This document shows, in pieces, positions 238 to 52,728 of a stretch of DNA of 52,728 nucleotides. The stretch's first letter is position 1, and each line of letters opens with the position of its first letter. Location: assembly GCA_902783265.1 (NCBI GenBank), contig CACZQJ010000074.1:1-52728 (forward strand), in the 5' to 3' direction. A program made the position numbers and the translations under genes. The notes under the pieces were generated by a model. It saw nothing but the letters and a program-made list of their open reading frames with translations. It was not told where the DNA came from and ran no database searches. The stretch comes from an uncultured Erysipelotrichaceae bacterium (lineage in GTDB: Bacteria; Bacillota_I; Bacilli_A; RF39; UBA660).

Positions 238-1455
238 TTATTTATAGATAATGTCGATGTCAACCATATTATCATCTATTCCATCGATTTTCCCATCGTC
301 ACACATTTGCCAAATTTTGAAGTCTCCTTTATAATTGGTTTCACTTGTATAATGAGCTAGCCAAATATTTGTGTTTGGCTTAAACCAAATTTTTTCTAGA
401 TAATTTTTACTGCTATAAAGCATACCTTCATATCCTGCTTTTTCTATTTTATTTATAAAGGTATTGGCTACTTCGGTTAAGTGGTAAAAGCTTAGATTAT
501 ATTCTTGATATTTTGACCAGTTTTCCCAATCAAAAGCAATTGGAAGTTCTATTTTGTATTTTTTTATTTCTTTTAATACCCATTTTGCCTGGCTTAAGGC
601 TTCTTCTTTACTGTCAGCATAAGAGAAAAAATAAATACCTACTGGGATCCCTACTTTTTTAAATCCTTCGATGTTTTTTTTAAATTTATTATCTAAATAA
701 TATTTTCCATTTTTTCCTTTTTGGCTGCCAATTCGTATAATTACAAATTCGGCACCTGCTTCTTTTACCTTTTCATAATTGATGTTTCCTTGATGATGAG
801 ATACATCTATTCCTATTTCTGTGTATTTGGTTTTATATCTTTCTTTTATATCTTTAAAAATTGTAGCCTTTTTTTCTATAGAAATTATATCTTTTTTAAT
901 GGTTTGTGGTTTTTCAATTACGTGAAGGGTGAAGCTATTTTGAGCTTCATTTTTTGAGCTATCGGTAGCTTTAAATATTAGATTATAGTTTCCTATTTCG
1001 TTTAAATTATAATCACCTATTATTTCACAATTTGGTTTATCATCATAATTATCTCCACAGAAAAACTTACTTTTAAGATCTGTGCTAGTTCCTTTATAAA
1101 GTGTAATATTTTTGTTATAACTTATTAATGGCGGAGTTATATCTACTATATTTATGTCAAATGAATATGAAATTTTTAAGTTTTCTTCATTTATATATTT
1201 AAATGTAATTTCTTGTTTCCCTAATTTTGTAGTGTTAATTTTTTTATTTTTTAATATTTCTCCGTTAATGTTTTTTATTAAATCTTTTAACTTTATATCA
1301 CTATATATTTCTATGTTTAAATTATCTACTAGTTCTACTTTTATTTTAGCATGCTTTATACGGTAATCCATATATAAATTATATCCAGTTATGGTGATTA
1401 GTATAAATAGTATTAGGCTAATAATTATTTTTATTATTTTTTTCATATATATCAC
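238..1455 (-). CDS. Membrane-anchored GH25 muramidase (lysozyme) with Ig-like (DUF5011-type) module
   Basis: 405-aa ORF with an N-terminal hydrophobic anchor (IIKIIISLILFILITITGY) and an Ig-like module (GDNYDD...GNYNLIFKATDSSKN). C-terminal GH25 signature IGIDVSHHQGNINYEKVKEAGAEFVIIRIG ... FDWENW. The ATG at 1446 may be the true start. Confidence 0.75.
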   Translation of the reverse strand: MIYMKKIIKIIISLILFILITITGYNLYMDYRIKHAKIKVELVDNLNIEIYSDIKLKDLIKNINGEILKNKKINTTKLGKQEITFKYINEENLKISYSFDINIVDITPPLISYNKNITLYKGTSTDLKSKFFCGDNYDDKPNCEIIGDYNLNEIGNYNLIFKATDSSKNEAQNSFTLHVIEKPQTIKKDIISIEKKATIFKDIKERYKTKYTEIGIDVSHHQGNINYEKVKEAGAEFVIIRIGSQKGKNGKYYLDNKFKKNIEGFKKVGIPVGIYFFSYADSKEEALSQAKWVLKEIKKYKIELPIAFDWENWSKYQEYNLSFYHLTEVANTFINKIEKAGYEGMLYSSKNYLEKIWFKPNTNIWLAHYTSETNYKGDFKIWQMCDDGKIDGIDDNMVDIDIIYK

Positions 1456-10405: not shown

Positions 10406-10540
10406 CTCCTTAATATAAAAACTCTGCGTATTATGCGCGCAGAGTTAAAAGGCTTTACTAAATCCTCGGTAGGAAATTAAGCTATAAGCACCTACTGTCT
10501 ACGGCATAATATATAAATTTTCGATTGCGTGTTAATTATA
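10406..10540 (-). promoter_or_regulatory. rplJ (L10) leader with extended -10 promoter and terminator-like attenuator hairpin
   Basis: Minus strand has TGtTATAAT (-10 at 10535-10540). A structured about 110-nt leader ends in the hairpin CTCTGCG(10438-10444)/CGCAGAG(10422-10428) followed by TTTTTAT, just before the rplJ RBS. This matches the L10-leader attenuation described in Bacillus. Confidence 0.5.
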
Positions 10541-11248: not shown

Positions 11249-11301
11249 TGTTTACCTCCTTGTGGTTTTTGCGGATAATCCTCCCACATTATATGTGGTA
11301 A

Positions 11302-15184: not shown

Positions 15185-15877
15185 CTAATCTAAAAAGCTT
15201 ATTAAATATGGACCTAGTATTAAAACTAGGATAAGTGGTACAACAAAAATTACAGAAATGACACTTACTTTGTTTGGTATTTTATTTATTTGTTTCTTGA
15301 TTTCTAATATTTGTTTTTCCCTCAAAAAATCGACTTGATTATAAAGCGTATCTAAAATGCTGTTTCCAAATTCTGATGTCTGAATTATATTTAGTATTAT
15401 GTTATTGATTGTGTCTGAAGATATTCTATCTTTCATGTCAGTCAATGCTTCATTTAACGACTTTCCTAATTTTGTTTCGTTTAAAGTTTTTTTAAATTCA
15501 TCTGATAATTCAGATTCAACGTTATCACATGTAACTATCAAAGCATTCTCTAGATTTCTTCCTGATTCTAATGTTAGTGTTAGTATTTCAAAGAAGTATA
15601 ATGCTTCATGCTCAAGTCTAAGATTTTTTTTATTTAGCTTTCTTGTGATGTTTATATAATAAAATAAGTAGTAGTATATTATGACTATAAATGGTGCGGT
15701 AATATATCCTGTTTTAGTGAATATTACGATGATGATAAATATTAGTAAGCTTGTTAATAGTCTATCTTTGCAAAAACTAACTGCTGTATATTTTGTGTCT
15801 TTTCCTAAGCAGGTAATATTGTGATTTAATTCGTCTAAAGATTTTTTTGAGTAGATTTTTCTAATTAGGCTATCCAT
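15185..15877 (-). CDS. tadC: Tad pilus platform protein, TadC-like (T2SSF domain)
   Basis: 230 aa with one T2SSF-type helical domain (ALYFFEILTLTLESGRNLENAL...LGKSLNEAL) flanked by TM segments. Its start overlaps the tadB-like stop (TAATG). Confidence 0.8.
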   Translation of the reverse strand: MDSLIRKIYSKKSLDELNHNITCLGKDTKYTAVSFCKDRLLTSLLIFIIIVIFTKTGYITAPFIVIIYYYLFYYINITRKLNKKNLRLEHEALYFFEILTLTLESGRNLENALIVTCDNVESELSDEFKKTLNETKLGKSLNEALTDMKDRISSDTINNIILNIIQTSEFGNSILDTLYNQVDFLREKQILEIKKQINKIPNKVSVISVIFVVPLILVLILGPYLISFLD

Positions 15878-17373
15878 TAAATCACCACCTTCATTATTTT
15901 ACGCACTACTACAACAAAGATTATATAGTAAATTAGCATAAATATCAATAGAATAATACCGATGCTTGTTGTAAAAAATGGAATAAAATATTCAGGATTA
16001 ATAATATTTATAACTAATACGAAGAAAAATGGCATACCTAGTAATACGGCTACAACTATTCTGCTGCCACTAGTTAGTGAAGCTAATTCGAGTCTTAATT
16101 TTCGCTTGTCGAACATATTTCTTTCAATTGAGTCAAACACTTTTATAATGTCGCCACCGGTTTTATTTAAAATGGTAAGTGATGCAGTTAAATAGTTTGC
16201 TTCTTCAAGGTTTATTCTTTTAGCAAATCTTTTAAAAACAACATCAATGCCTAGTCCATATAATAATTCTAGGCTCATTCTGCCGAACTCTTCGCCTACT
16301 ATTCCTTTTAATTCGTGGCTTACAATGTCAATGGCTTGGGTAATACTTCTTCCTGATTTGAAAGCGTTGTTCATTATAGTAATGGCGGCGATAAAGTCAC
16401 TTTCTACTTTCCATCTGAATATTTTATATTTTATAAAATATAGAATGTCTAGCACAAAAAATCCAAAGGTAAATATTAAAGTTATTTCGTATGATGCGAG
16501 TAATTTTAACTTTAATCCTTGTATTACTAGAGCAATAATTACAAAGATAAAGGCGGTTATAAATTTACCAGCAAATATTTCTAAACCGCTTGTGTGTAAT
16601 TTGGTTACTGGGGTATATTTATCTAGTTTTTTAGAATATTTCTTGGCAATTTCTGATTTGTCAAAGTTTTTGGTTATTTTGTCCAGCATTCTTTGATATT
16701 CTTTTATTAATTTTTCCGATAATGAAGGCTTGTTATTTTCTATCGGTTTTAAGGTGTATGGTTCTATTCTTTTTTCTAGTTTAAGCGCTCTTTGAACTCT
16801 TATAATCATTAATGAAACAATAAAGAATAATATGATAAATACGGCTTGGAACATAAATAGGTAATCATTGTTAATTATTTTAATATTTATTTCTTTTGTT
16901 GTTTCGTTTCCAGCTCTATCTATAACAGTATACACTAGTTTTTGATCTTTATTTGTTTTTAAATCAAGGCTATCGATGTTTGTTTTTACTTGATTTGTCA
17001 TATTGCCGTCAAAATTATCTTTGGCTGTAACGTTTTGATTTATAGTGTCTTTTACATTTTCTTTTATTTCAAGGTTTTCATTTTTTACGATTATTTCTGG
17101 GCTTTCTTTATCAATTATATAGTATCCAGAAGTTATGCTTTGACTAGTTCCGTCTAGAAGATTAGCATTTATCTTTATTTGATAAACTCCTGTTTCTGTA
17201 AAATTAATAGTGGTTTCTTTATTTAAAGGAAATGAAGTTGTGGCAATTTTATTATCTTGATATATTTCGTAGTTATATGTTTCCACATTAAGAGATGGCG
17301 AAAAAACAACAGTTACATCGCTGTTTGCTGGATTATTTGTATTTGTAATGCTTAAATTACCTACTCCATTCAT
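15877..17373 (-). CDS. tadB: TadB-like platform protein with about 170-aa N-terminal Ig-like (DUF5011-type) domain
   Basis: 498 aa. Residues about 1-170 are beta-rich with no signal peptide and include VTAKDNFDGNMTNQV...VYTVIDRAGNETT. A TM follows (FMFQAVFIILFFIVSLMII), then a T2SSF domain (MNNAFKSGRSITQAIDIV...) and C-terminal TMs. Confidence 0.8.
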   Translation of the reverse strand: MNGVGNLSITNTNNPANSDVTVVFSPSLNVETYNYEIYQDNKIATTSFPLNKETTINFTETGVYQIKINANLLDGTSQSITSGYYIIDKESPEIIVKNENLEIKENVKDTINQNVTAKDNFDGNMTNQVKTNIDSLDLKTNKDQKLVYTVIDRAGNETTKEINIKIINNDYLFMFQAVFIILFFIVSLMIIRVQRALKLEKRIEPYTLKPIENNKPSLSEKLIKEYQRMLDKITKNFDKSEIAKKYSKKLDKYTPVTKLHTSGLEIFAGKFITAFIFVIIALVIQGLKLKLLASYEITLIFTFGFFVLDILYFIKYKIFRWKVESDFIAAITIMNNAFKSGRSITQAIDIVSHELKGIVGEEFGRMSLELLYGLGIDVVFKRFAKRINLEEANYLTASLTILNKTGGDIIKVFDSIERNMFDKRKLRLELASLTSGSRIVVAVLLGMPFFFVLVINIINPEYFIPFFTTSIGIILLIFMLIYYIIFVVVVRKIMKVVI

Positions 17374-17383
17374 ATTATTCCCC

Positions 17384-18709
17384 TTATCCTTTAAATATAT
17401 CTTTTAAATCGTCTATTCCTTTTGCTTTAATACGGTCATAGTTCTTTGGTATATAATTATGTAAAATAAACTCACCGTCAACATCACCGTTTTCTAAAAC
17501 TCCTGTTTGAATAAATTCAAATATTTTCTTTTGTTTAATTTCTCCGTTTTCAATACCGGTTATTTCATTAATACTACTGATACGTCTTCTTCCATCTGTT
17601 AATCTTTTTACTTGCACGACAATTTGAATGGCTCCTTCGATGTATTCTCTAATGGCACCGACTGGAATTTCGACCCCGTTCATCAAAACCATTGTTTCTA
17701 ATCTGTTTAAAGCGTCTTCTGGGTTGTTAGCATGCATTGTTGTCATACTTCCTTCGTGTCCAGTATTCATGGCTTGAAGCATATCAAAGGCTTCTTTACC
17801 ACGAACTTCTCCAACAATAATTCGGTCTGGTCGCATTCTTAATGAGTTAATTACTAAATCTCTGATGGTTATGGCGCCTTCGCCTTCATAGTTATTGTTT
17901 CTTGTTTCTAGTGAAATAACATGGGGCTGTTTTAATTTTAGCTCGGCGGCGTCTTCAATTGTAATGATTCGGTCGTTTTCGTCACAGAATGATGATAAAA
18001 CGTTTAATAGGGTTGTTTTACCAGCACCAGTTCCCCCTACAACTAAGATGTTTAATTTAGCATGAACACATGCTTCTAAGAACCTTGCCATATATGGCGT
18101 TAATGTTCCAGTTCTTAAAAAATCTTCGATACCTACTAATTCACTTTTGAATTTTCTAATAGTAACAACTGGGCCTTTTAATGACAGTGGTGGCAAGATG
18201 GCATTTAATCTTGACCCATCATCTAGTCTTGCGTCAACCATTGGATGAGCGGTGTCAATTGTTTTGCCAATTGGCTGAATTAGTCTTTGAACGACTCTAA
18301 TTATATGTTCGTCGTTAATAAAGCTAACGCTTTCGTCTTTTATAACTTTACCATCTAGTTCAATATATATTTCATCTGGACTATTAACCATAATTTCGGT
18401 TATCTCTTTGTCTTTTAATAATTCCGTAAGTGGTCCATAGCCATTTATTTCATTATCAATTAAATTATATATATAATTTCTTTCGTTATTTGTTAAATCG
18501 TAGTCGCCAATTATTTCATCTATGCCGTTTTTTATGAATTCGTCAACATTTTTATTTAAGGCTTCACTATCAATTAGGTGCTGGATAATATTGTTTCTTA
18601 GCTTGTCTAACAACTTTTTATTTTTAAATTCATCATAATCGCTAGTTTCCGTTATTTGTACGGATTTATCAAGAGCGGAAAATTCTGCTTTAAATTTTCT
18701 TTCTTCCAT
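17384..18709 (-). CDS. tadA: Tad pilus assembly ATPase (CpaF/TadA family)
   Basis: 441 aa with Walker A VVGGTGAGKTTLLN, Asp box/Walker B RIITIEDAAEL and RPDRIIVGEVRG, and the His-box region GHEGSMTTMHAN. Confidence 0.93.
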   Translation of the reverse strand: MEERKFKAEFSALDKSVQITETSDYDEFKNKKLLDKLRNNIIQHLIDSEALNKNVDEFIKNGIDEIIGDYDLTNNERNYIYNLIDNEINGYGPLTELLKDKEITEIMVNSPDEIYIELDGKVIKDESVSFINDEHIIRVVQRLIQPIGKTIDTAHPMVDARLDDGSRLNAILPPLSLKGPVVTIRKFKSELVGIEDFLRTGTLTPYMARFLEACVHAKLNILVVGGTGAGKTTLLNVLSSFCDENDRIITIEDAAELKLKQPHVISLETRNNNYEGEGAITIRDLVINSLRMRPDRIIVGEVRGKEAFDMLQAMNTGHEGSMTTMHANNPEDALNRLETMVLMNGVEIPVGAIREYIEGAIQIVVQVKRLTDGRRRISSINEITGIENGEIKQKKIFEFIQTGVLENGDVDGEFILHNYIPKNYDRIKAKGIDDLKDIFKG

Positions 18710-18720
18710 AAAAAGCCCTC

Positions 18721-19449
18721 CTATTTTATTATTTCTTTTATCATTTCTCTTAAATGGTCGGCGTCTTTGCTATTTGGTTTTTCAATTACTTTAATTTTAC
18801 CGTTTTCAAGATATTTTTGGTTGTCTTCTTCATAAAATGATTTTGGCAATGTATAATCTATTTCTTTTCCTAAAATTGTTTTTATTTCAAAATTATTTAA
18901 TCTTTTTATATTTTCGTTTAATATTATTTTATATTTACTTACGTTCATGTCTTCATAGATGGTAATCAATGTTTTCATATTTTTTAAATCCATTAAATCA
19001 TCGGTTAATATATATAAGATTTTGTCGCTGGCATCAAAAGCGATTAGATTGGTTTCACTAATGACATGGTTTGTATCTATTAATATAACATCATACTTAT
19101 ATTCTAACTGTTTTAATACTGTTTCGATATATTGCGGAAATATTTTTAGCGTATTTCTAGGATCATTTGGGCATGCTAAAACATCAATATATTCGTTATA
19201 GCTTGTTACATATTTTTCGATTTGAGAATATCTGTTATTCATCATGTCATCTGTTAAACTGTAAATATCTTGAGTATTATTAACACCAAGACTTGCTGCA
19301 ATAACACCACTACTGGTGTCTAAATCTACAATAATGGTTTTTATTTTTTCTTGGCTTAGCGCTCCGGCTAAGTTTAGAACGAATGTGCTTTTGCCTACGC
19401 CACCTTTGACTGAAGTTACAGTTATTATTTTTGCTTTATTGGAAGCCAT
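18721..19449 (-). CDS. tadZ: ParA/MinD-type ATPase, TadZ/CpaE-like
   Basis: 242 aa with the deviant Walker A VTSVKGGVGKST. It sits directly upstream of tadA. It has the ATPase core only, with no N-terminal receiver-like domain. Confidence 0.75.
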   Translation of the reverse strand: MASNKAKIITVTSVKGGVGKSTFVLNLAGALSQEKIKTIIVDLDTSSGVIAASLGVNNTQDIYSLTDDMMNNRYSQIEKYVTSYNEYIDVLACPNDPRNTLKIFPQYIETVLKQLEYKYDVILIDTNHVISETNLIAFDASDKILYILTDDLMDLKNMKTLITIYEDMNVSKYKIILNENIKRLNNFEIKTILGKEIDYTLPKSFYEEDNQKYLENGKIKVIEKPNSKDADHLREMIKEIIK

Positions 19450-19458
19450 ATAATCCCT

Positions 19459-19830
19459 CTATTCTTTTTTTATAATTATTTGTCCGTTTATAATAGAACC
19501 AGTGAATGTAATATCAATGTCTAGTTTGTTTTTAAAAAAGGCTCTGTATATTGTTTTATATTCATTTTTTACATTTATTTTAATCTCATCATTTGTTATA
19601 TTAATTGTTTTTTCGCCTTCAATATTACTATCTAATAAGTTTTTTAATTTGAGCTCGATTTCAGGGTCATCTAGGTGTTTTAAACCGTATTTTATAGTGT
19701 TTTTTATTTCACTTTCATATTTACTTTGAGTATATGATAAATTACCGAGTTCCCAAACTAAAGTGATAAGAATAAAAATTACGGGCAAAAGTAATACAAA
19801 AACTACTAAGCTTTGGCCTTTATTAGTCAT
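19459..19830 (-). CDS. TadE/TadG-like pseudopilin
   Basis: The ORF extends to 19863, but GGAG lies 6 nt before the ATG at 19830. This gives MTNKGQSLVVFVLLLPVIFILITLV, a Flp-type leader plus hydrophobic helix. It overlaps the upstream gene's stop. Confidence 0.65.
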   Translation of the reverse strand: MTNKGQSLVVFVLLLPVIFILITLVWELGNLSYTQSKYESEIKNTIKYGLKHLDDPEIELKLKNLLDSNIEGEKTINITNDEIKINVKNEYKTIYRAFFKNKLDIDITFTGSIINGQIIIKKE

Positions 19831-20167
19831 TTTCTGCTCCATAAATAGCTCTTGATGCTTCAACTATATATTTTTTTCCTATGATGTTTGATAGTATTGG
19901 GGCATTAATGTCTATTTCTTTTTTTAATGTTAATATAGTTAAATGATTATTTAGGCTTTCAGAAAACTCAATGCCTTCTACGGCTGCATACGCTAAAACT
20001 TCTTTTTTATCACGATTTTCATATATTGTTGTAATGGTTTCTAAATCTTTATTTAATTCATATTTATTCATAAAAATATTGCCAACGTCAATTAATGACA
20101 TGAGTATTATTAGTAATACTGGTAAGATTAATATGAATTCTACTAAAGCTTGCCCTCTCTTATTCAT
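19823..20167 (-). CDS. tadE: TadE-like pseudopilin
   Basis: 114 aa, MNKRGQALVEFILILPVLLIILMSL, i.e. the TadE N-terminal motif (G/QALVEF plus LxxP). First gene of the tad operon. Confidence 0.7.
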   Translation of the reverse strand: MNKRGQALVEFILILPVLLIILMSLIDVGNIFMNKYELNKDLETITTIYENRDKKEVLAYAAVEGIEFSESLNNHLTILTLKKEIDINAPILSNIIGKKYIVEASRAIYGAEND

Positions 20168-23935: not shown

Positions 23936-24907
23936 ATGAAAAAGTTAAAAAGCGTTTTTATTATGTTGTTTTTACTTTTTATAGGTTTTGAAATATTAAC
24001 TGACTCAAAAAGCATTTTAAATTCTGTTAGTTTTTCACTTTTGATTTTTAAAGAAAATGTTTTTCCTTCTTTATTTCCTTTTTTGGTTTTATCAAGTCTT
24101 TTGATTAACTATGGTTTTGTTGAATTTATGGGCACTTTATTTAAAAACTTTATGAATAAGCTTTTTAAAATAAACGGCGAATGCGCATTTATCTTTTTCA
24201 TGAGTATTATATCAGGAAATCCAGCTAATGCCAAATATACTAGAGAGTTATATATTAGCGGTAAGATAAATAAATATGAGGCAACTAAAATATTATGTTT
24301 TAGTGCGTTCACTTCTCCTTTGTTTATTCTTGGATCGGTATCATTGTTTTTAAATAGTAAAAAGGCGGCAGTTTTAATATTAATTTGTCATTATTTGGGT
24401 AATATTATTATTGGCATTTTAATGCGTGGCTATCATCCAAGTAAGATAAGTAAAGAAAAAGTAAGTCTCGGAAAGGCAATTGATAGGATGCATAATAAAA
24501 GAATTAGTAACAAAGAAAGTTTTGGAATAATTATTACTAATTCTTTAATGAATAGTATTAATACTTTATTGTTAATTCTTGGAGTCATTACTGTTTGCTT
24601 AGTATTTACTACTATAATTGATAATAATATTAATTTAAATAGTGTTTTTCAAAGCATATTAAATGGTTTTGTCGAAATGACGCAAGGCATTAGATATATT
24701 GGTAAAGAGATAATACCACTAAAACTCAAAAGCGTTCTTACAGTAATGATTCTGTCATTTGGTGGTTTTAGTGTTCACCTTCAGATAATGAGCATCCTTT
24801 CTGATACTGATATTAAATATTTCCCATTTTTTCTTTCAAGAGTTATCTGTAGTATAATTTCTTCTATTTTATTATATTTTTCTTTTGATTTAATACTTAT
24901 GAGTTAA
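23936..24907 (+). CDS. ylbJ: Sporulation integral membrane protein YlbJ-like (nucleoside-recognition/Gate domain)
   Basis: Polytopic membrane ORF. GGTGA lies 5 nt before the ATG at 23936 (MKKLKSVFIM...). It is divergent from ylbL, in the same gene neighbourhood as B. subtilis ylbJ and ylbL. Confidence 0.75.
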   Translation: MKKLKSVFIMLFLLFIGFEILTDSKSILNSVSFSLLIFKENVFPSLFPFLVLSSLLINYGFVEFMGTLFKNFMNKLFKINGECAFIFFMSIISGNPANAKYTRELYISGKINKYEATKILCFSAFTSPLFILGSVSLFLNSKKAAVLILICHYLGNIIIGILMRGYHPSKISKEKVSLGKAIDRMHNKRISNKESFGIIITNSLMNSINTLLLILGVITVCLVFTTIIDNNINLNSVFQSILNGFVEMTQGIRYIGKEIIPLKLKSVLTVMILSFGGFSVHLQIMSILSDTDIKYFPFFLSRVICSIISSILLYFSFDLILMS

Positions 24908-25361
24908 TCTCAATATGGTAATAGTAAACTGCTTTGTATTCGTAATCTTCAGATAAACTTTTATGACTTAGAGACATTTTTATTTTTATACAATAATTTT
25001 CACCATCACTAGTTATATTTTCTATACTGGCGTTTTTAATTTTTACGTCTTCTGGCATTTTATATTTTTGATCTTTAATTGTTATACTATTATCACTTGT
25101 GTTTATTGTTATTAGGTTGGGATTCCCATTTCTAAGATAATGACAGGACGTATCTTCACATTCGTAACTACTACCCTCATTTATACTACTTTTTATATTT
25201 TTTGAAATAACACCTAGTTTTTCTTGAATTTTAGTTTTAATAGATGTTTCTATAAAAATATCTTTAACATCTATTAATACTTCAAAAAGGAAAAGACTAA
25301 TAATCATAGTAAGCGCGAAAGATGTTATTAATTCAACAACAGTAAATCCTTTGTTTTTCAT
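24897..25361 (-). CDS. Type IV pilin/pseudopilin (class III signal peptide)
   Basis: 154 aa, MKNKG/FTVVELITSFALTMIISLFLFEVL, with Gly-1, Phe+1, Glu+5 and a hydrophobic alpha1 helix. It starts 13 nt after the LRR pilin gene. Confidence 0.75.
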   Translation of the reverse strand: MKNKGFTVVELITSFALTMIISLFLFEVLIDVKDIFIETSIKTKIQEKLGVISKNIKSSINEGSSYECEDTSCHYLRNGNPNLITINTSDNSITIKDQKYKMPEDVKIKNASIENITSDGENYCIKIKMSLSHKSLSEDYEYKAVYYYHIEINS

Positions 25362-25376: not shown

Positions 25377-26975
25377 CTATTCAGAAGTTTTAGCAGTGAA
25401 GTATCCTGGAGTTCCGGATGCATCAATTCTTGCATATTCTTTGTTTATGTGATTAGAATCATATGTTGTACCATTGCCACCTACTAAATTAGTGCAGCCT
25501 TCAAACATATGTGCATCTTTAGCGTTTTCTCCGCCTTCGCTGCTTACTTTATTAACAGCGAAATTATCTGATGCAATTATTGTTTTAAGCTTGGTACACC
25601 CATTAAACATACTATTGGTTCCGGTCACTTCTTGGGTATTAAAATTACTTAAATCTAGACTAATGAGTTCCTTGCAGATATTAAACATTGCATTCATGTT
25701 TGTTACTTTGCTTGTGTCAAAGCTTTTTAAATTAATACTCTTAAGGTTAATACAGTCTTGAAACATAACACCCATGTTTGTTACTTTGCTTGTGTCAAAA
25801 TTACTTAAATCTAGACTGGTAAGCATACTACACCTATTAAACATATATTGCATATCTTCTACTTTACTTGTATCAAAATTTTCGCCGAAACTCAAACTTC
25901 CTAAGTTCTCACATCCGCTAAACATGTAGCTCATGTTTGTCACATTACTAGTATTAAACTGGCTTAAATCTATTGATGAGAGAGCTGAACATCCTTCAAA
26001 TAAATGTTGCATATCTGTTACATTACTCATGTCAAAACTGCTTAAATCTATTGTCGCTAAGTTCATGCATCCCTCAAACATATGTCCCATATTGGTTATG
26101 CTTTTTATTTCCCCGTTCATTTCATAGCTCGTAATGTAATGTGTAAAATCTATTGATTTTAATTGCCTAAAATTGGTGAAAATATAGCTGGAGTCTTCGT
26201 TGGCATACACTCCTCCGTCTCCGCCAATATGAAGAACATATTTAGAGCTATCTGCTGGATATGGGGTTACCCAGGCCATTACGGCTCCACTATTAGCGAC
26301 TGCTGATACATCCCATGATTTTGCTCCATTTGGAACGTCGGTATTATCTTCAAACACTATTTGTGCAATGCTTGCTCTTAATATTCCTGTATTTTTTATT
26401 AATGTTGTTTCCGAGTTAAATGATTTTATTAATGGCGTTAATCTTGGTTTAGCGGTATTTATTGCAACAGTGGCAAAATGGCCATTTTTAAATTTAGCAA
26501 TTAAACGTCCTTTATTTTCTACTAAAGTTGTATCAACTTTTTTAATGAAATTTTTCATATCATTATCTAATGTTATATTATTTATTGAATTTTTTATTTC
26601 AGAAATATCGGAATTAGTATATATGGCGTAGTCTAATTCTAAGGCTTTTCCAATTTCGGTGCAGGTATCTTTGCTAAAACCTGGTTTTAATTTAATATCA
26701 TCTGTTTGGCATTCATTATTATTATAAACATAGAAAAATTTGTTACTTTCAAGTTGATTATTTAAAGTATTATTTGTATCCTCATATGTTTTGAGATAGT
26801 CAGCAAGAGAACCTAAACTATATATATCTTCAACACTATTATAAATATAAGTTGTTTTATAATTACTCATTAAATTTCTAAACTGGACAAATAAAAACAT
26901 TAGTACAGTTAAAACGAATGTTGAAACTATTAATGATTCGGCAAGTAGAAACCCCTTATTATTCATTTTTGACAT
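25377..26975 (-). CDS. Modular type IV pilin with C-terminal 26-residue LRR (BspA/DUF285-like) array
   Basis: 532 aa, MSKMNNKG/FLLAESLIVSTFVLTVLMFLFV (Gly-1, Phe+1, Glu+5). Residues about 265-498 hold about 9 repeats of type VTNM..MF.GC..L.S.DLS.FDTSK, ending in the tail GGNGTTYDSNHINKEYARIDASGTPGYFT. RBS is GGTGA 6 nt before the ATG. Confidence 0.8.
   Translation of the reverse strand: MSKMNNKGFLLAESLIVSTFVLTVLMFLFVQFRNLMSNYKTTYIYNSVEDIYSLGSLADYLKTYEDTNNTLNNQLESNKFFYVYNNNECQTDDIKLKPGFSKDTCTEIGKALELDYAIYTNSDISEIKNSINNITLDNDMKNFIKKVDTTLVENKGRLIAKFKNGHFATVAINTAKPRLTPLIKSFNSETTLIKNTGILRASIAQIVFEDNTDVPNGAKSWDVSAVANSGAVMAWVTPYPADSSKYVLHIGGDGGVYANEDSSYIFTNFRQLKSIDFTHYITSYEMNGEIKSITNMGHMFEGCMNLATIDLSSFDMSNVTDMQHLFEGCSALSSIDLSQFNTSNVTNMSYMFSGCENLGSLSFGENFDTSKVEDMQYMFNRCSMLTSLDLSNFDTSKVTNMGVMFQDCINLKSINLKSFDTSKVTNMNAMFNICKELISLDLSNFNTQEVTGTNSMFNGCTKLKTIIASDNFAVNKVSSEGGENAKDAHMFEGCTNLVGGNGTTYDSNHINKEYARIDASGTPGYFTAKTSE
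25482..26183 (-). repeat. In-frame tandem repeats (about 78 nt / 26 aa) encoding the LRR array
   Basis: Successive units include ITNMGHMFEGCMNLATIDLSSFDMSN, VTDMQHLFEGCSALSSIDLSQFNTSN, VEDMQYMFNRCSMLTSLDLSNFDTSK, VTNMGVMFQDCINLKSINLKSFDTSK and VTNMNAMFNICKELISLDLSNFNTQE. Confidence 0.8.
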
Positions 26976-27006
26976 AATTTTTCACCTTTTTCAATTGTTT
27001 TTATCT

Positions 27007-27030
27007 TAAATATATTATATAATATATTTA
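27007..27030. promoter_or_regulatory. 24-bp perfect palindrome in the divergent pilin / pilB-like intergenic region (candidate operator overlapping both -10 boxes)
   Basis: taaatatattatataatatattta checked base by base as self-complementary. It contains TATAAT on both strands (27018-27023 plus strand; 27014-27019 minus strand). Confidence 0.4.
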
Positions 27031-27068
27031 GGATAAAATCTAGTCCTAACTTTTAAGGGGTTGATAAA

Positions 27069-28364
27069 ATGGTTAGAACATTTGATTTTCAAAGAGTTCC
27101 TATAGTTGATATATTAAATGAAATATTAGTTGATTCTGCTAAAAGAGGCGCTAGTGATATTCACTTTGATCCGCAAGCAGGAAGATTATTGATTAGAATT
27201 AGGGTTGATGGACTTTTATATGATTATGCAGAAGTACCTAATGAAATTAAGAATTATTTAATTACTCGTGTTAAAACAGTCGCAAGAATGAATATTACAG
27301 AATCTAGACTTCCTCAAGATGGCGCTATTAAAGCTACTTTGCAAGGTGTTGACTTAGATCTTCGTGTTTCTTCTTTGCCGGTAAGTAATGGGGAAAAGAT
27401 TGTTATTCGTATTTTAGATTATTCGATGAGTATGGCTGGTCTTAATGAACTTGGTTTTAGTGAAGAGAATTATAAAAAAATTCTTGAAATGATAAGTGTT
27501 CCTAACGGTATAATATTAGTCACTGGGGCTACTGGTAGTGGTAAATCAACTACGGTATATTCAATTCTTCAACATTTAAATACTCCTACTACCAATATTA
27601 TTACAGTTGAAGACCCTATTGAAATGGATATAGCTGGTATTAATCAGGTACAAACTAATAGTAAAATTGGACTTACTTTTGCGACGGCACTTAGATCAAT
27701 TTTAAGACAAGACCCTAACATAATTATGATTGGAGAAATACGTGATACTGAGACTGCTAGAATTGCCGTTAGGGCTTCTATTACTGGTCACTTGGTTTTA
27801 TCTACTTTACATACTAATACTTCTTTAAATACTATTGAGCGTTTAATTGATATGGATGTACAAAAATATTTACTTTCTTCGGCTTTGGAGGGTGTTGTTT
27901 CGCAAAAGCTTGCTAGAAGGCTTTGTGAACACTGCAGGACTAAAAGAAAAACTAGCAATTATGAAAGAGAAATATTTAAAACGGTTTTAGGATATGATGT
28001 TTTAGAAATTTACGATGCTGAAGGATGTCAATATTGTAACGATGGTTATAGAGGACGTATTCCAATTCATGAAGTTTTAAAAATTAATCAAAAAATTCGC
28101 GATGCTTTGAGTGATGATGTTCCTAAAGATAGATTAAGAGGTTTGGTTTACGGAGAATCTGATGTTATAACTATGCTTCAAGATGGGCTTCAAAAAGTTG
28201 TTAAGGGTTTTACTAGTTTTGAAGAAATATTAAAAATCATTGAACTTGAAGACGATGATCAGATTAGTGATAAAAGTGCTTTAAAAGAGGCTATTATAGA
28301 AACTAAGGCTGTTATGGAAGCTCGTGAAGGAAATAACTCACAACCTGGAAGTGTAATACAATAA
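27069..28364 (+). CDS. Type II/IV secretion ATPase (GspE/PilB/ComGA family), short form
   Basis: 431 aa with Walker A VTGATGSGKSTT, Asp box ITVEDPIE, Walker B IIMIGEIRD, His box LVLSTLHTN and the tetracysteine CEHC...CQYC. There is no long N1 domain. RBS is AAGGGG 8 nt before the ATG. Confidence 0.92.
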   Translation: MVRTFDFQRVPIVDILNEILVDSAKRGASDIHFDPQAGRLLIRIRVDGLLYDYAEVPNEIKNYLITRVKTVARMNITESRLPQDGAIKATLQGVDLDLRVSSLPVSNGEKIVIRILDYSMSMAGLNELGFSEENYKKILEMISVPNGIILVTGATGSGKSTTVYSILQHLNTPTTNIITVEDPIEMDIAGINQVQTNSKIGLTFATALRSILRQDPNIIMIGEIRDTETARIAVRASITGHLVLSTLHTNTSLNTIERLIDMDVQKYLLSSALEGVVSQKLARRLCEHCRTKRKTSNYEREIFKTVLGYDVLEIYDAEGCQYCNDGYRGRIPIHEVLKINQKIRDALSDDVPKDRLRGLVYGESDVITMLQDGLQKVVKGFTSFEEILKIIELEDDDQISDKSALKEAIIETKAVMEAREGNNSQPGSVIQ

Positions 28365-28397
28365 AAAACTAAGGTTTTAAAAAAAATCTTAGTTTTT
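28364..28397. terminator. Bidirectional terminator-like hairpin between convergent genes
   Basis: Stem aaaaactaag (28364-28373) / cttagttttt (28388-28397) with a large A/T loop, between the pilB-like stop and the 156-aa ORF stop. Confidence 0.35.
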
Positions 28398-28859
28398 ATA
28401 TTCCCTAATTGTTTTAGATGTGGCATCTTTAAAGGTCCCTTTAGCACTTGTATTTATTCTCGTTATTCCATTTGGAGCTAATTTTCCAATACTACCTTTT
28501 AGACTTGTTAGAACTTTTCCTTTTTTGTCATTTAAATCAATGTATACATTTTCATATCCGTTTTCGGTGTTTCCAACGTTTGTCACTGTCGCTGAAAATG
28601 TTGTTATTCCATTTTTGGTGATTAGTGAAATATCTGTAAATTTTAAGTTTTTAAATGTTTCATCTTTAACTATTGAGTCTTCTTTATGGCTATATTCAGT
28701 AATTTCTTTCTTTTTTTCTTTTAATTCGATGTCTTTTGATTTATACCATAGAGGAACTACCGCAAGTAGTAAGATAAACACCATTAGTATTATTTTTATT
28801 TTTGAATTATTTGTTATTTCGGTCATTGCCTTTTCCGTTTTTTGCTTTTTATTTTTCAT
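28389..28859 (-). CDS. Membrane-anchored hypothetical protein with beta-rich ectodomain
   Basis: 156 aa with an N-terminal TM (IKIILMVFILLLAVVPLWY) followed by a beta-sandwich-like segment (FSATVTNVGNTENGYENVYIDLNDKKGKVL). No family assigned. Confidence 0.55.
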   Translation of the reverse strand: MKNKKQKTEKAMTEITNNSKIKIILMVFILLLAVVPLWYKSKDIELKEKKKEITEYSHKEDSIVKDETFKNLKFTDISLITKNGITTFSATVTNVGNTENGYENVYIDLNDKKGKVLTSLKGSIGKLAPNGITRINTSAKGTFKDATSKTIREYKN

Positions 28860-28928: not shown

Positions 28929-29366
28929 TTATAAAAATTGTTTTAGTTTTTCAATATATTCTTCACCGAATTTTCTAAAGCTTTTGGCTAAGTTTAAAAT
29001 ATCTTTATCAATATATTTTTCAAAATTTGATATTCGTTTATCTATCTCAAGATTACCCATAGTAAGCCCTTGAATTAACATGTCGGCCATACTTGAATCA
29101 CTATTGTCTTTTTTTACTTCCATTTTTATACTCATTTTACTCATGATATCGGCCATAAGACCAGCTGTTTTTGGCTCAGTTTTATATTTTTTTAGTAGTT
29201 TACTGCTTTCTTTTTCGAATTTTTCGTATTCCTTGTTAATATTTTCTAATGTTTTTTTTATTTTATTGTCTTTGTCTTTTAGGGCGGTTAGTAGATCCTC
29301 GCTACTGCTATGACCCATGCTGCTTGCTTTATACAAATATTCTAACATTTCTAAATTTTCATCCAT
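28929..29366 (-). CDS. Hypothetical helical protein (145 aa)
   Basis: Clean ORF, predicted all-helical and Lys/Glu-rich. AGGGGT RBS-like sequence upstream of the neighbouring gene. No motif recognised. Confidence 0.5.
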   Translation of the reverse strand: MDENLEMLEYLYKASSMGHSSSEDLLTALKDKDNKIKKTLENINKEYEKFEKESSKLLKKYKTEPKTAGLMADIMSKMSIKMEVKKDNSDSSMADMLIQGLTMGNLEIDKRISNFEKYIDKDILNLAKSFRKFGEEYIEKLKQFL

Positions 29367-31935: not shown

Positions 31936-31961
31936 AACAAAAAAAGATATTTAATATCTTT
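31936..31961 (-). terminator. Intrinsic terminator immediately after the flp pilin gene
   Basis: 8-bp hairpin aaagatat (31943-31950) / atatcttt (31954-31961), then TTTTTGTTATG on the minus strand. Confidence 0.55.
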
Positions 31962-32152
31962 TATTGACAAGAACCCTCTCCAGGATGTGCACCTTCAACG
32001 TACTCTTTATCTATTAATTTACAAGAAGATTTTGTCATTGAATCTTGAACATATCCACCTAATAATCTAACAACACTTACCACAATAACACTTATAACTG
32101 CAATAATTAATAAATATTCAACTAATGCTTGTCCCTTATTATTTAACTTCAT
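31961..32152 (-). CDS. flp: Flp/Fap-family type IVb pilin
   Basis: 63 aa, MKLNNKG/QALVEYLLIIAVISVIVVSVV, matching the Flp motif G-XXXX-EY followed by a hydrophobic helix. The leader is near-identical to the two TadE-like proteins at 19459-20167. Strong RBS GGAGG 7 nt before the ATG. Confidence 0.75.
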   Translation of the reverse strand: MKLNNKGQALVEYLLIIAVISVIVVSVVRLLGGYVQDSMTKSSCKLIDKEYVEGAHPGEGSCQ

Positions 32153-33459: not shown

Positions 33460-33560
33460 ATTAAACCTCCTTTGTAATCTAAGACTCGCCATTAAGGTAA
33501 TATTTGAAATATTTTTGAAACCTTTTTTGTGCGGTTGTAGAGGAAGCTCTACACAATTAA
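33460..33560 (-). promoter_or_regulatory. Possible L21 (rplU) leader
   Basis: About 100-nt untranslated region with the hairpin gtagag (33537-33542) / ctctac (33547-33552). An rplU leader RNA is known in Firmicutes; I cannot verify the covariance model by eye. Confidence 0.3.
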
Positions 33561-48123: not shown

Positions 48124-48891
48124 TCAAATAACTGAATCTGTTTCAAGTTCGCCAATATTAAAATTTAATAATTCTTTACAAACTTCTTCAAATCTATCTT
48201 GCTCATTTTTAATTGTGTCAATCAAAAACATTTTATCATTATCGTATTCCTTGAGACCTCGCATATAATATGGCTTATCATCATCTAAAACAATAAAAGG
48301 TAATATGTTATTTTTTAAACATTCTTTAAACATAATCATTCTACCTACTCTACCATTGCCATCTCCAAATGGATGAATTCGTTCGAATCTAACATGAAAT
48401 TCAATAATATCATCAATAGTAATGTCATGAAGCTTTTCATACCATTTTAATAATTCATCAATATCTCTCTCTACATCTTCAGGTTTAGAAGTATTAATAA
48501 CATTTATAAGCCCAATCTTATTAGGAACAACTTTAAAACCTCCAACATTATATCTCGGATTTATCTCATCAGTTGTATTTCGTTTTAAAATTTTATTCAT
48601 TTTAACAATTATTTCTTTTGTGAGAGTATTATCAACAATGTCCAAAGCATAATCAAACAATCTAAAATGATTTTTCATTTCGATTAAATCATCCAGTTTT
48701 ATTGCATCATCAGACTTAGGAATAAAAGAATCTGTTTCAAAAATTTCCTCTGTCTCATCAGATGTTAATTTATTACCTTCAATTTTATTCGAATTGTATG
48801 CAAAATTAACCTGGCAATAATGATATATGTTGCCTTTAAACTTAGATTTCTTCTGCTCTATTAATTCTTTTTTTATCTTTGCAACATTCAT
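48124..48891 (-). CDS. fic: Fic/DOC family protein (AMPylase-type, class II with N-terminal inhibitory motif)
   Basis: Fic motif HPFGDGNGRVGR, and the N-terminal SNKIEGN matches the inhibitory (S/T)xxxE(G/N) helix. GGAGG lies 6 nt before the ATG at 48891. Confidence 0.9.
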   Translation of the reverse strand: MNVAKIKKELIEQKKSKFKGNIYHYCQVNFAYNSNKIEGNKLTSDETEEIFETDSFIPKSDDAIKLDDLIEMKNHFRLFDYALDIVDNTLTKEIIVKMNKILKRNTTDEINPRYNVGGFKVVPNKIGLINVINTSKPEDVERDIDELLKWYEKLHDITIDDIIEFHVRFERIHPFGDGNGRVGRMIMFKECLKNNILPFIVLDDDKPYYMRGLKEYDNDKMFLIDTIKNEQDRFEEVCKELLNFNIGELETDSVI

Positions 48892-48920
48892 AGTAAACCT
48901 CCATAGCAAAATAATTATCT

Positions 48921-50949: not shown

Positions 50950-50974
50950 TGAAAAAACATCTAATAATTAGATG
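50950..50974 (-). terminator. Intrinsic terminator of the CnaB adhesin gene
   Basis: 7-bp hairpin catctaa (50958-50964) / ttagatg (50968-50974) around the stop codon, then TTTTTTCATATC on the minus strand. Confidence 0.5.
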
Positions 50975-52728
50975 CTTTTTCGATTTTTTTAATAGTTTCA
51001 CTGATTGAAACGCCAAGGATATTGGCCAATAAGATTACTAAGAATGCATAATTATTGGTTTCTTCTTTTCCAGTTTTTGGAGGAAGAACTTCAATATATT
51101 CTTTAACTTCATGAGTATTAATTACGTTATAACCATCAATTACTTTAGTATAACCTTCAACTAATTCTTCATCGATTGTATAAACTACTTCCTCACCGTT
51201 TTGATATTTATATAATCCGTATAAGATATATTTCCAATTATCTTCTTTCATAACTTTAAATGTTTTGATGTATATTCCATTTCCATATAATCTTAGATTA
51301 ATGAAATCTGGTCTTATTCTATCAGCATTGTTGTTATCATTCCAGATTTTTTCTCCAGATATTGAAATGTATTCTACTTCACGTTTATTGGTTATGTCAT
51401 ATGCATTATTTGTATTTGTTTGAGGCGCTGTTAAATCATCAGTTACGTTTACGTCTGTAACGGTTGTTTTAGTGTTTTCTTCATTTTGTTCAACTGTTGT
51501 TTCGTAATTTTTAACTTCAATTTCTTCTATTTCGTATTTAACTGCCGTTTTTTTGCCTTTAACATTCTTGTATTTTTTATATCCTTTTTTATCATTATCA
51601 AATGTATGTGTCCAATCGTTACTATCATTTAACTCTGCTGAAGCGATTACTTCGCCATCGGCAAGTAAATTTACTTTAATTGATTCTGGTCTTAATCCTT
51701 CAACATTGTTTTCATCTTCCCAGTGTTTTGTAACCGTAAATGTTACAGTTTCTGGTAAATAATAGTTCGTGATTTCAAAGTTTTCATCATTAACTTCTTT
51801 GGTATATGTATTACCTTCTAATACTTCGTCAACGTAATATTTTATAGTTTCATTATTATTATCTGTTATAGGTAAATTAACAAATTCATAAGTCCAGTCT
51901 TCGCCAGTTACTTGAGCTGTTTTAATTGGGTCTTCGTGAATTCCATCATATAAATTTACAGTGATTGAATCAGGTCTAGTAACATCGTTGTTATTATCAT
52001 CTTCCCAAATCTTTTTACCAGAAATTGTTCTAACACCATTTGGTTTATATGTGTTTGTGATTTCAACTTCGAAACTATTATCTTCACTTGATGATGTGAT
52101 ATTTTGAATAGTAGTTTGACTGCTTTCATAGTTATTTACAGTTGTTTTTTCTTCGACAGAAAATTTTAGTAATTCCCCATCTCTAAATTTAGGCAAGTTT
52201 TCTTCGGTTATTGTCCACTGATTTTTATCATTTAAAGTATATGTATACTTATCATCTGTACAATAATCGGCTTTACTTGAACTACAACTTAATTTAACTT
52301 GAATGCTGTCATTATGTCCGTAGATGTTTTCTATTCCATCTTTACTTACATTAATCCATTTTTTAGTGATCTTGATGTTAGTTCTTCCAGGAACATAAGT
52401 GTTTGTAATAGTAGTTAATCCTGTTTCTTTATTTAATGAATATCCAGTTTGGGTATATCCATCTGGAAGAGAGTCAGTGTCTTCAGTCCATTTATATTCT
52501 ATTTCTTGTCCACCTGAATATTTTGGTAAATTTTCAATAGTTGCAGTCCAGTCATTACCACTATTTAAAGTAACTTCGTTTCCATTACTTAATTTAACTT
52601 TTAAAGATGTTGGACGTTTTCCGTCTTCGTTTTCACCATCGTTCCATATTTTCTTAACAGATACTGCTGTAGTTTCTGGAGTATAGCTATTAGTAATAGT
52701 AAATCCTGTTTCTTTATTTCCAGTTACG
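50961..52728 (-). CDS. Cell-wall-anchored surface protein with CnaB-type repeats and a PPKTG sorting signal (5' end outside window)
   Basis: The frame stays open to the window edge; the track's M at 52196 is an internal TTG. There are at least 5 CnaB-like units (KKIWNDGENEDGKRPTSLKVKL; KKIWEDDNNNDVTRPDSITVNLY; KHWEDENNVEGLRPESIKVNLL; EKIWNDNNNADRIRPDFINLRLY). The C-terminus is VLPPKTG plus a hydrophobic stretch plus a basic tail. Confidence 0.85.
   Translation of the reverse strand, partial: VTGNKETGFTITNSYTPETTAVSVKKIWNDGENEDGKRPTSLKVKLSNGNEVTLNSGNDWTATIENLPKYSGGQEIEYKWTEDTDSLPDGYTQTGYSLNKETGLTTITNTYVPGRTNIKITKKWINVSKDGIENIYGHNDSIQVKLSCSSSKADYCTDDKYTYTLNDKNQWTITEENLPKFRDGELLKFSVEEKTTVNNYESSQTTIQNITSSSEDNSFEVEITNTYKPNGVRTISGKKIWEDDNNNDVTRPDSITVNLYDGIHEDPIKTAQVTGEDWTYEFVNLPITDNNNETIKYYVDEVLEGNTYTKEVNDENFEITNYYLPETVTFTVTKHWEDENNVEGLRPESIKVNLLADGEVIASAELNDSNDWTHTFDNDKKGYKKYKNVKGKKTAVKYEIEEIEVKNYETTVEQNEENTKTTVTDVNVTDDLTAPQTNTNNAYDITNKREVEYISISGEKIWNDNNNADRIRPDFINLRLYGNGIYIKTFKVMKEDNWKYILYGLYKYQNGEEVVYTIDEELVEGYTKVIDGYNVINTHEVKEYIEVLPPKTGKEETNNYAFLVILLANILGVSISETIKKIEKASNY

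Follow-up and report, generated by a model that had tools for sequence, protein, structure and literature searches.

A probable modular type IV pilin with a DUF285/PARCEL repeat module in an uncultured Erysipelotrichaceae bacterium

Relation to described modular pilins and DUF285 proteins

A modular pilin in the sense of Raynaud et al. (2021) consists of a pilin module joined to a domain that is not of the type IV pilus (T4P) kind, and in Streptococcus sanguinis two such proteins, PilB (with a vWA domain) and PilC (with a lectin domain), were shown to be adhesins and were proposed to be located at the pilus tip (PMC8179133). Here we describe a 532-amino acid (aa) protein that is a modular pilin in this sense. 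It is encoded on the minus strand at 25377..26975 (stop codon 25377..25379) of a 52,728-nt contig from an uncultured Erysipelotrichaceae bacterium (CACZQJ010000074.1; the whole of this 52.7-kb stretch is referred to below as the window), and in it a pilin module, which we call FLLAE-type from the residues that follow its predicted cleavage site, precedes a DUF285/PARCEL repeat module. Our preferred interpretation, which we consider probable, is that the protein is a bimodular type IV pilin that is processed by PilD, assembled into a filament in which it is likely to be tip-located, and presents its DUF285 solenoid as a ligand-binding module. Like PilB and PilC, it belongs to a monoderm host and would be a presumed minor or tip adhesin encoded beside other pilins (PMC8179133, PMC9934059). 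It differs from them in that the added module is a DUF285/PARCEL solenoid and not a vWA domain or ConA-lectin, that the pilin module is not recognised by signatures of the IPR012902 type, that it is encoded in a minimal unit of an assembly ATPase and two pilins instead of a full pil operon, and that it is known from genes alone.

Although the initial annotation of this DNA regarded the fusion of a pilin to leucine-rich repeats (LRRs) as unprecedented, Dataset S1 of Raynaud et al. (2021) contains nine rows in which IPR012902 is combined with one to nine copies of IPR005046, accounting for 22 of the 1,219 modular pilins, and also lists fusions to BspA-type LRRs (PMC8179133); IPR005046 corresponds to DUF285/PF03382 (PMC2996958). 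The architecture of the 532-aa protein is already catalogued and does not constitute a new type of system. The catalogued proteins, and a further, independent example (P0087, see below), have the same arrangement, with DUF285 repeats after a class III signal peptide, but theirs is the canonical G|FTLIE sequence, whereas the protein described here belongs to a separate G|FLLAE family. To our knowledge, none of the pilin-DUF285 fusions has been studied.

The DUF285/PARCEL surface proteins described by Roske et al. (2010; PMC2996958) resemble the repeat module in their 26-aa period, in sequence (40-50% identity) and in having open reading frames (ORFs) on the opposite strand, but they usually carry lipoprotein, Sec or putative SipW-type signals where the present protein has a pilin module. 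With ComGD and ComGF of the Com-type DNA-uptake pilus (T4dP; PMC12153270) the locus shares a weak N-terminal similarity, two adjacent minor-pilin-like genes and minimal machinery; however, the scores fall far short of the family cut-offs, the genes do not form a comG operon, the protein has a large C-terminal module and the ATPase is nearer to GspE and PilB. According to PMC8179133, ComZ of Thermus thermophilus is a large minor pilin whose β-solenoid module has a DNA-binding role and is thought to lie at the pilus tip; the 532-aa protein likewise combines a pilin-like subunit with an additional solenoid domain, but here this is an LRR-like array of a different family appended at the C-terminus.

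The pilin module and the repeat module

The gene is preceded by a ribosome-binding site (AAAGGTG), and the protein begins with the leader peptide MSKMNNKG (aa 1-8, net charge +2; 26952..26975, minus strand), followed by the hydrophobic α1N segment FLLAESLIVSTFVLTVLMFLFV (aa 9-30; 26886..26951, minus strand). The prepilin-like character that the initial annotation saw in this N-terminus was borne out, as G8, F9 and E13 occupy positions -1, +1 and +5 relative to the predicted prepilin-peptidase cut after G8 and are accompanied by about 22 hydrophobic residues. The pilin module as a whole (aa 1-175; 26451..26975, minus strand) comprises an α1 helix and a small α/β head with four strands and a cysteine pair (C89/C105), and ends in KGRLIAKF-NG-FATV. 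When all six frames of the window were searched with a regular expression for class III signals, only four proteins were returned, all of them pilus-related: the 532-aa protein, the 154-aa pilin encoded next to it, a TadE-like protein and an Flp-like pilin. A near-identical contig, from a sample labelled STEW19 metagenome, carries a copy of the protein (P0077) that differs at two residues.

A family search with the first 280 aa as query returned 76 relatives, in which homology to the pilin module spanned about 170 aa and beyond which the sequences diverged completely; the module also occurs as stand-alone proteins of 154-171 aa, and other relatives have unrelated C-termini. Alignment of the homologues gave a favourable answer on the conservation of Gly-1 and Glu+5: F+1 and E+5 were invariant in 79/79 and G-1 was present in 75/79, with Ala in the remaining four, while in the 75 members of the 79 that could be anchored on G-1 the residues F+1, L+2, L+3, E+5, L+7, T+11, F+12 and T+15 were all invariant. 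The leaders of the family are 5-9 aa long, have a net charge of +1 to +3 and end in NNKG or NNRG, and C89 and C105 of the head are nearly invariant. A profile built from pilin-only members and searched against 1.84 billion cluster representatives identified 1,116 clusters at E<=1e-3 and 435 at E<=1e-10. In the best 150 of the 1,116 clusters the module was N-terminal, in proteins of 98 to 1,271 aa, and the pattern [GA]-x4-E was kept in 148 of these 150, the other two being N-terminally truncated. The family, which numbers 435 clusters or more at 50% identity, appears to be restricted to uncultured gut/rumen Bacilli with small genomes and is missed by the standard pilin signature. Comparison by hhalign with the family of the neighbouring pilin, which has the sequence FTVVE after its predicted cleavage site, gave a probability of 89% (E=2.3e-6) over α1. 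By these sequence comparisons the N-terminal ~175 aa were shown to carry, and to conserve, every hallmark of a predicted prepilin-peptidase substrate. Conservation, together with the synteny described below, led us to reject a chance hydrophobic anchor at the N-terminus.

Two other FLLAE pilins drew attention by eye, one of 450 aa (P0062) with thrombospondin-type-looking CSxxCGGG repeats and one of 490 aa (P0013) with a glycine-rich β-helix-like repeat region.

The C-terminal part of the 532-aa protein was matched by Pfam DUF285 (PF03382; E=1.9e-56, 189.4 bits, cut-off 25) and by the TIGR02167 'PARCEL repeat' model (E=9.3e-52, 172.1 bits against a cut-off of 30, in six stretches), so that both of the expected repeat families were obtained above their cut-offs. 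It begins with a β-rich cap (aa 176-291; 26103..26450, minus strand) that has the hallmarks '...SWDVS...GAVMAWV...YVLHIGG...', includes a degenerate first repeat (aa 266-291) and is found in the same form in DUF285 proteins without a pilin module and in other pilin fusions. Eight clear 26-aa units follow (aa 292-508; 25452..26102, minus strand) in the register x-V-T-N-M-x-x-M-F-x-x-C, seven of them contiguous (aa 292-474, mean pairwise identity 0.42) and the eighth after an 8-aa insertion, which with the degenerate unit agrees with the 'about 9' units counted initially; Tandem Repeats Finder reported a 78-nt period in the corresponding DNA. The original description of the array as 'BspA-like/DUF285' held for its DUF285 half and failed for its BspA half: PF13306 (LRR_5) was absent among the matches of the protein at E<=0.1, where the generic LRR_8 and LRR_4 models appeared below threshold, and 'BspA' fits solely through the name that NCBI gives to DUF285 proteins, 'BspA family leucine-rich repeat surface protein'. 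BspA-type LRRs presumably have an InterPro entry of their own, which we take to be IPR026906. The C-terminal cap or tail ...NKEYARIDASGTPGYFTAKTSE (aa 509-532; 25380..25451, minus strand) contains the motif YARID..PGYFT, which is shared by 15 of the top 120 DUF285 relatives (C-terminal in 12 of the 15) and by most pilin-DUF285 fusions. It is therefore typical of a subset of DUF285 proteins and not, as first supposed, of the whole family.

With the C-terminal 357 aa, 7,821 relatives were found at E<=1e-20, the best non-pilin relatives being 40-50% identical. Most of the close DUF285 relatives have Sec-type or putative SipW-type N-termini and a few have pilin N-termini. Among P0078-P0196, N-termini such as 'MNKYKLYMILG...SFAYYIW' and 'MDKKKESIILS...MSYAFLKTS' look SipW-type, and many of these proteins carry Pfam PF27784. 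The survey of homologues also answered the question of whether the fusion recurs. Further FLLAE-DUF285 members were found (P0077, P0098 and P0107), and P0087 is an independent, canonical G|FTLIE pilin fused to DUF285 that shares with the 532-aa protein the cap and the tail '...LVGGNGTTYDS...YARID..GTPGYFT'. Because P0087 is a separate G|FTLIE pilin, the pilin-DUF285 fusion arose or was transferred at least twice. P0087 is one of two G|FTLIE pilin-DUF285 proteins (542 and 653 aa) whose genes stand in tandem at 469..4116 of L050, with the end of a third DUF285 gene ahead of them. Opposite the repeats, on the plus strand at 25474..26134, lie antisense ORFs of 95, 51, 64 and 53 aa with the repeated sequence 'MFVTLLVSKLLKS...'; many coding regions for PARCEL repeats are described as having such ORFs on the opposite strand (PMC2996958).

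The full-length protein was modelled with AlphaFold2 (AF2) from an 89-sequence alignment, with a mean pLDDT of 92.3 and a pTM of 0.81. The α1 helix and LRR solenoid anticipated for the protein were both seen in the model, together with a small α/β head: a helix at 7-43 is continued at 48-63, strands lie at 80-85, 114-121, 155-162 and 167-173 with helices inserted between them, and a β-rich cap at ~203-292 leads into a regular solenoid in which every 26 aa contribute a short strand. The DUF285 module is confidently predicted to be an LRR-like solenoid. Foldseek with the full model retrieved generic LRR ectodomains (TLR3, E=9e-4) at low TM scores, and the nearest solved relative of the C-terminal part in a sequence search of the PDB was Treponema TpLRR (E=3e-5). 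Modelled alone, the pilin module reached a pLDDT of 79.8, and the predicted order of its secondary-structure elements is compatible with a pilin fold.

A conserved three-gene unit with an exchanged C-terminal module

The conventional 154-aa pilin reported downstream of the 532-aa ORF is indeed present (24897..25361, minus strand; MKNKG|FTVVE), with its own ribosome-binding site and at a distance of 15 nt, not 13 as first given; the two genes are probably co-transcribed. This partner pilin matched the Pfam N_methyl model below the cut-off (E=0.002) and had a weak resemblance to ComGE and ComGF (ComGF 18 bits against a cut-off of 80). On the other side, an AT-rich intergenic region of 93 bp (26976..27068), in which promoters are presumed to lie, separates the pilin operon from a divergent gene (27069..28364, plus strand) for a 431-aa assembly ATPase of the PilB/GspE type (T2SSE, E=7e-121). 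A scan of the locus for promoters and terminators gave nothing above shuffled expectation in this AT-rich DNA. By eye, the ATPase has a Walker A motif (GATGSGKST) and a C-terminal CxxC...CxxC; it scored 475 bits on GspE, 458 on PilB and 261 on ComGA (cut-off 300), each below the equivalog cut-off. Beyond it are genes for a membrane-anchored FxLYD-domain protein of 156 aa (28389..28859, minus strand), which neighbours the ATPase in ~30 genomes, and for a conserved cytoplasmic protein of 145 aa (28929..29366, minus strand) that is syntenic in ~30 genomes.

When one genome per species was scanned, 37 loci were obtained, almost all of them from Candidatus Coprosoma, Firmicutes bacterium CAG:822 or metagenome-assembled genomes of uncultured 'Bacilli bacterium' or Firmicutes; two are on complete chromosomes of 1.34 and 1.54 Mb, which belong to bacteria related to Candidatus Coprosoma and Firmicutes CAG:822. 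The order common to ~30 of the loci is the 145-aa protein, the FxLYD protein, the ATPase (reverse), the FLLAE pilin and the FTVVE pilin, continuing with a Gate protein (reverse), Lon/PDZ, MutS and a Tad locus. Identity to the proteins of the window was 75-94% for the ATPase, 37-71% for the pilin module and 30-55% for the partner pilin, which is 144-171 aa long in most genomes and longer in three. An ATPase and two pilins were thus shown to form a free-standing three-gene unit that is conserved in uncultured gut/rumen Bacilli, and the synteny along the chromosome speaks against the locus as a whole having been inserted recently.

Within this unit the pilin module was constant and the C-terminal module differed between species. 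At the orthologous position, four loci have a pilin-only version of 165-169 aa (L008, L026, L027 and L044), while the others carry DUF285 (the window and P0001), DUF285 with a Laminin_G_3 lectin (L012 and L015), an ALK_LTK glycine-rich domain with a ricin lectin (L016), a ricin lectin (L043), DUF6273 (L013) or modules without a Pfam match (L014, L020, L037 and P0004). The C-terminal domains counted over 93 long representatives of the FLLAE family were similarly varied, with ALK_LTK_GRD in 16, DUF285 in 12, DUF6273 in 6, Laminin_G_3 in 5, the Listeria-Bacteroides repeat in 5 and BspA LRR_5 in 2; ricin, fibrinogen_C and sialidase-associated domains were also present. These comparisons showed that the pilin module is a constant scaffold and that the module in the C-terminal slot has been exchanged between species.

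The second pilin is occasionally the extended one. At 5490..9423 of L019 the FTVVE pilin carries DUF285 and a Listeria-Bacteroides repeat, and at 11279..12730 of L034 and 11370..12812 of L035 it is 480-483 aa long with no Pfam match. Additional orphan paralogs also occur elsewhere, for example the DUF6273 pilins beside rpsL in Coprosoma.

Proposed assembly, alternative readings and genomic setting

A platform and a peptidase were found near the locus in a relative at a greater distance. When Escherichia coli HofC, GspF and GspO were used as probes against ~800 kb of DNA from the lineage, a platform was found only in L046, which comes from a relative further removed, with 68% identity in the ATPase. 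This match led to one 17-kb stretch (L056/L057) that encodes the ATPase followed by a 151-aa FLLAE-like pilin (profile E=1.3e-13), Gate, Lon and LeuRS, then a 152-aa FTVVE-like pilin (E=1.6e-8), YqfQ, PilC (T2SSF, 567 aa) and PilD (A24_N_bact and Peptidase_A24, 254 aa), with Tad genes directly after; in L056, 8 kb separate PilC and PilD from the orthologous locus. At least one relative therefore has a full minimal machine, since this stretch holds the ATPase, platform, peptidase and two pilins, and PilM, PilN, PilO and PilT were not seen in the lineage DNA examined. A PilC-PilD pair that is 59% identical, with the motif GGGDIKL in PilD, stands beside dnaG and sigA in other Bacilli-like contigs. 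The PilC-like platforms of these Bacilli are unusually long, at 550-780 aa (L054 9986..12052; L056 10001..11704), and that of L054 has a lysine/glutamate-rich N-terminal extension ahead of the T2SSF domains.

In the mechanism that we favour, a PilD-type peptidase encoded outside the window would cleave the 532-aa protein after G8, and α1 would then enter a filament built by the neighbouring ATPase together with a PilC-like platform. Being so bulky, the protein would be a low-abundance and probably tip-located subunit; by analogy with ComGD-ComGF, or with PilA, PilB and PilC of S. sanguinis, it would likely pair with the 154-aa pilin, and the solenoid would be turned outward to bind ligands as an adhesive module. 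We infer both display on a filament and adhesion for the protein, adhesion because the alternative modules of the slot are of lectin and adhesin types and because deletion of a Lactococcus gene for a DUF285/MucBP/Big_3 surface protein reportedly lessened adhesion to polystyrene and mucin (PMC5071367).

Several results weigh against this interpretation. The N-terminal methylation motif that the initial annotation expected to find was not matched in the 532-aa protein by Pfam PF07963 or TIGR02532 at E<=0.1, PF07963 matched 0/20 members of the FLLAE family at E<=1, and position +2 is Leu and not Ser/Thr. Regular-expression and Pfam searches of the window found no PilC/ComGB-type platform or A24 peptidase, nor was there an obvious major pilin in it, and none of the three was found within ±10 kb of the orthologous locus in close relatives. 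The link to PilC and PilD was seen only in a distant relative (ATPase 68% identical). For the pilin module alone, a Foldseek search of the PDB gave nothing significant, pilins included (best E=0.56), and sequence and profile searches of the PDB with both the FLLAE and the FTVVE families were empty; since no solved structure matches the head, 'pilin fold' is drawn from the order of secondary-structure elements only. We also know of no ligand for any DUF285 domain.

The lack of a peptidase and a platform in the window and beside the locus in close relatives, the unmatched curated pilin signatures and the failure to find a structural match to a pilin would suit a protein whose N-terminus is an unprocessed signal-anchor that tethers the solenoid to the cytoplasmic membrane with no filament involved, and the majority of DUF285 proteins are surface proteins of the ordinary secreted or anchored kind. 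Such an anchor, however, would have no need of the invariant F+1 and E+5, the near-invariant G-1 and the short basic leader, which are kept over more than 400 clusters, nor would it explain why in ~30 genomes the gene keeps its place between an assembly ATPase and another pilin, or why a relative has PilC and PilD close to the homologous pilins; the pilin-only members of ~160 aa would moreover have no cargo to tether. We consider a simple membrane anchor very unlikely.

The resemblance to Com proteins raised a further alternative, in which the 532-aa protein is a ComGD-like minor pilin of a dispersed Com-type pilus that serves to capture DNA, and its C-terminal module is accessory or directs the pilus to certain surfaces or sources of DNA. 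All 20 of 20 pilin-only members of the family gave sub-threshold N-terminal matches to ComGD (best E=3.3e-5) and ComGE, the partner pilin matched ComGE and ComGF as described above, ComGD and ComGF sit side by side at the tip of Com pili (PMC12153270), the ATPase scored 261 bits on ComGA against the cut-off of 300, and the machine of the relative, with its ATPase, platform, peptidase and pilins, is as minimal as that of Com. Nevertheless, the matches are confined to the N-terminal helix and lie far under the curated cut-offs: the 532-aa protein itself scored 19 bits on NCBIfam ComGD (NF040982; cut-off 70) and 14.8 on ComGE (NF041013; cut-off 49), and the partner scored 18 on ComGF (cut-off 80). 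The ATPase scored higher on the GspE and PilB models, neither ComGB nor ComGC was found next to the ORF, the window has no comG operon order, ComGC-like pilin, ComEA or ComEC, and the modules of the slot (Laminin_G_3, ricin, fibrinogen_C and DUF285) are of lectin and adhesin, not DNA-binding, types. We regard this alternative as unlikely.

It is also conceivable, though in our view very unlikely, that the FLLAE pilin is itself the major shaft subunit and that every subunit carries the DUF285 solenoid. The 17-kb stretch of the relative has only two pilin families and the window has no other candidate for a major pilin, the pilin-only FLLAE versions of ~160 aa could form a shaft, and a location in the filament body was not excluded by Raynaud et al. 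for modular pilins if the linker is flexible (PMC8179133). On the other hand, a rigid module of 357 aa on a mature pilin of 167 aa would presumably be hard to pack at each subunit, and the pTM of the model suggests a fairly fixed geometry between the modules. The FTVVE pilin is a better candidate for the shaft because its size is near-constant (~144-171 aa in most genomes), and the modular pilins characterised so far are low-abundance subunits (PMC8179133).

The locus was also considered as a possible part of the Tad-type pilus system encoded nearby (15185..20167, minus strand), which comprises two TadE-like proteins, a CpaE-like ParA ATPase, TadA, TadB (498 aa, with an Ig-like insert) and TadC. 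This was rejected as the primary reading, as the ATPase of the locus is of the PilB/GspE type and the Tad system has its own TadA, TadB, TadC and Flp. The Flp-like pilin (63 aa, MKLNNKG|QALVEY; 31961..32152, minus strand) lies 12 kb from the Tad locus, which looks complete but for the lack of a peptidase gene. Its leader MKLNNKG is also that of the FTVVE pilins of L027, L040 and L043, and PilD directly abuts tadE in L056; judging from these shared leaders and this gene order, one peptidase may serve both the T4P-like and the Tad systems. This could be extended to a view, which we consider unlikely, of the FLLAE family as a lineage-wide display scaffold, with one slot for interchangeable host- or glycan-binding modules, among them DUF285, lectins, ricin, fibrinogen-like domains, DUF6273 and unassigned folds, and a dispersed minimal machine whose single PilD is shared with Tad.

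The window is chromosomal, with a GC content of ~29%, and includes rpoBC, mutS, ftsA/ftsZ, mreC/mreD and mur genes. Rfam L10 and L21 ribosomal-protein leaders at 10406..10522 and 33472..33546 (both minus strand) indicate an ordinary Bacillota chromosomal context; phage or mobile-element genes were not noticed beside the locus, and the window lacks tRNA genes. Elsewhere in it, on the minus strand, are genes for a 411-aa protein with three Cna_B domains (50961..52196; E=7e-56), a probable surface or adhesin protein, for a GH25 muramidase with an Ig-like domain (238..1455) and for a Fic/DOC-family protein (48124..48909).

What appears to be new is a pilin family outside the Pfam and TIGR models that underlie IPR012902, its distribution in small-genome gut/rumen Bacilli, and the pattern of one slot and many modules in a free-standing unit of an ATPase and two pilins. 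Because the FLLAE family is not detected by the models behind the signature, it would escape a census based on IPR012902, and censuses that depend on N-methylation signatures miss whole pilin families. Modular pilins account for the many functions that simple filaments have taken on; only a few of these proteins have been studied, and DUF285/PARCEL is in none of them. The setting in which the locus places DUF285, a widespread domain, speaks for a role in ligand binding at an exposed position, and the same scaffold and slot with differing predicted binding modules point to adhesion specificity as a fast-evolving trait.

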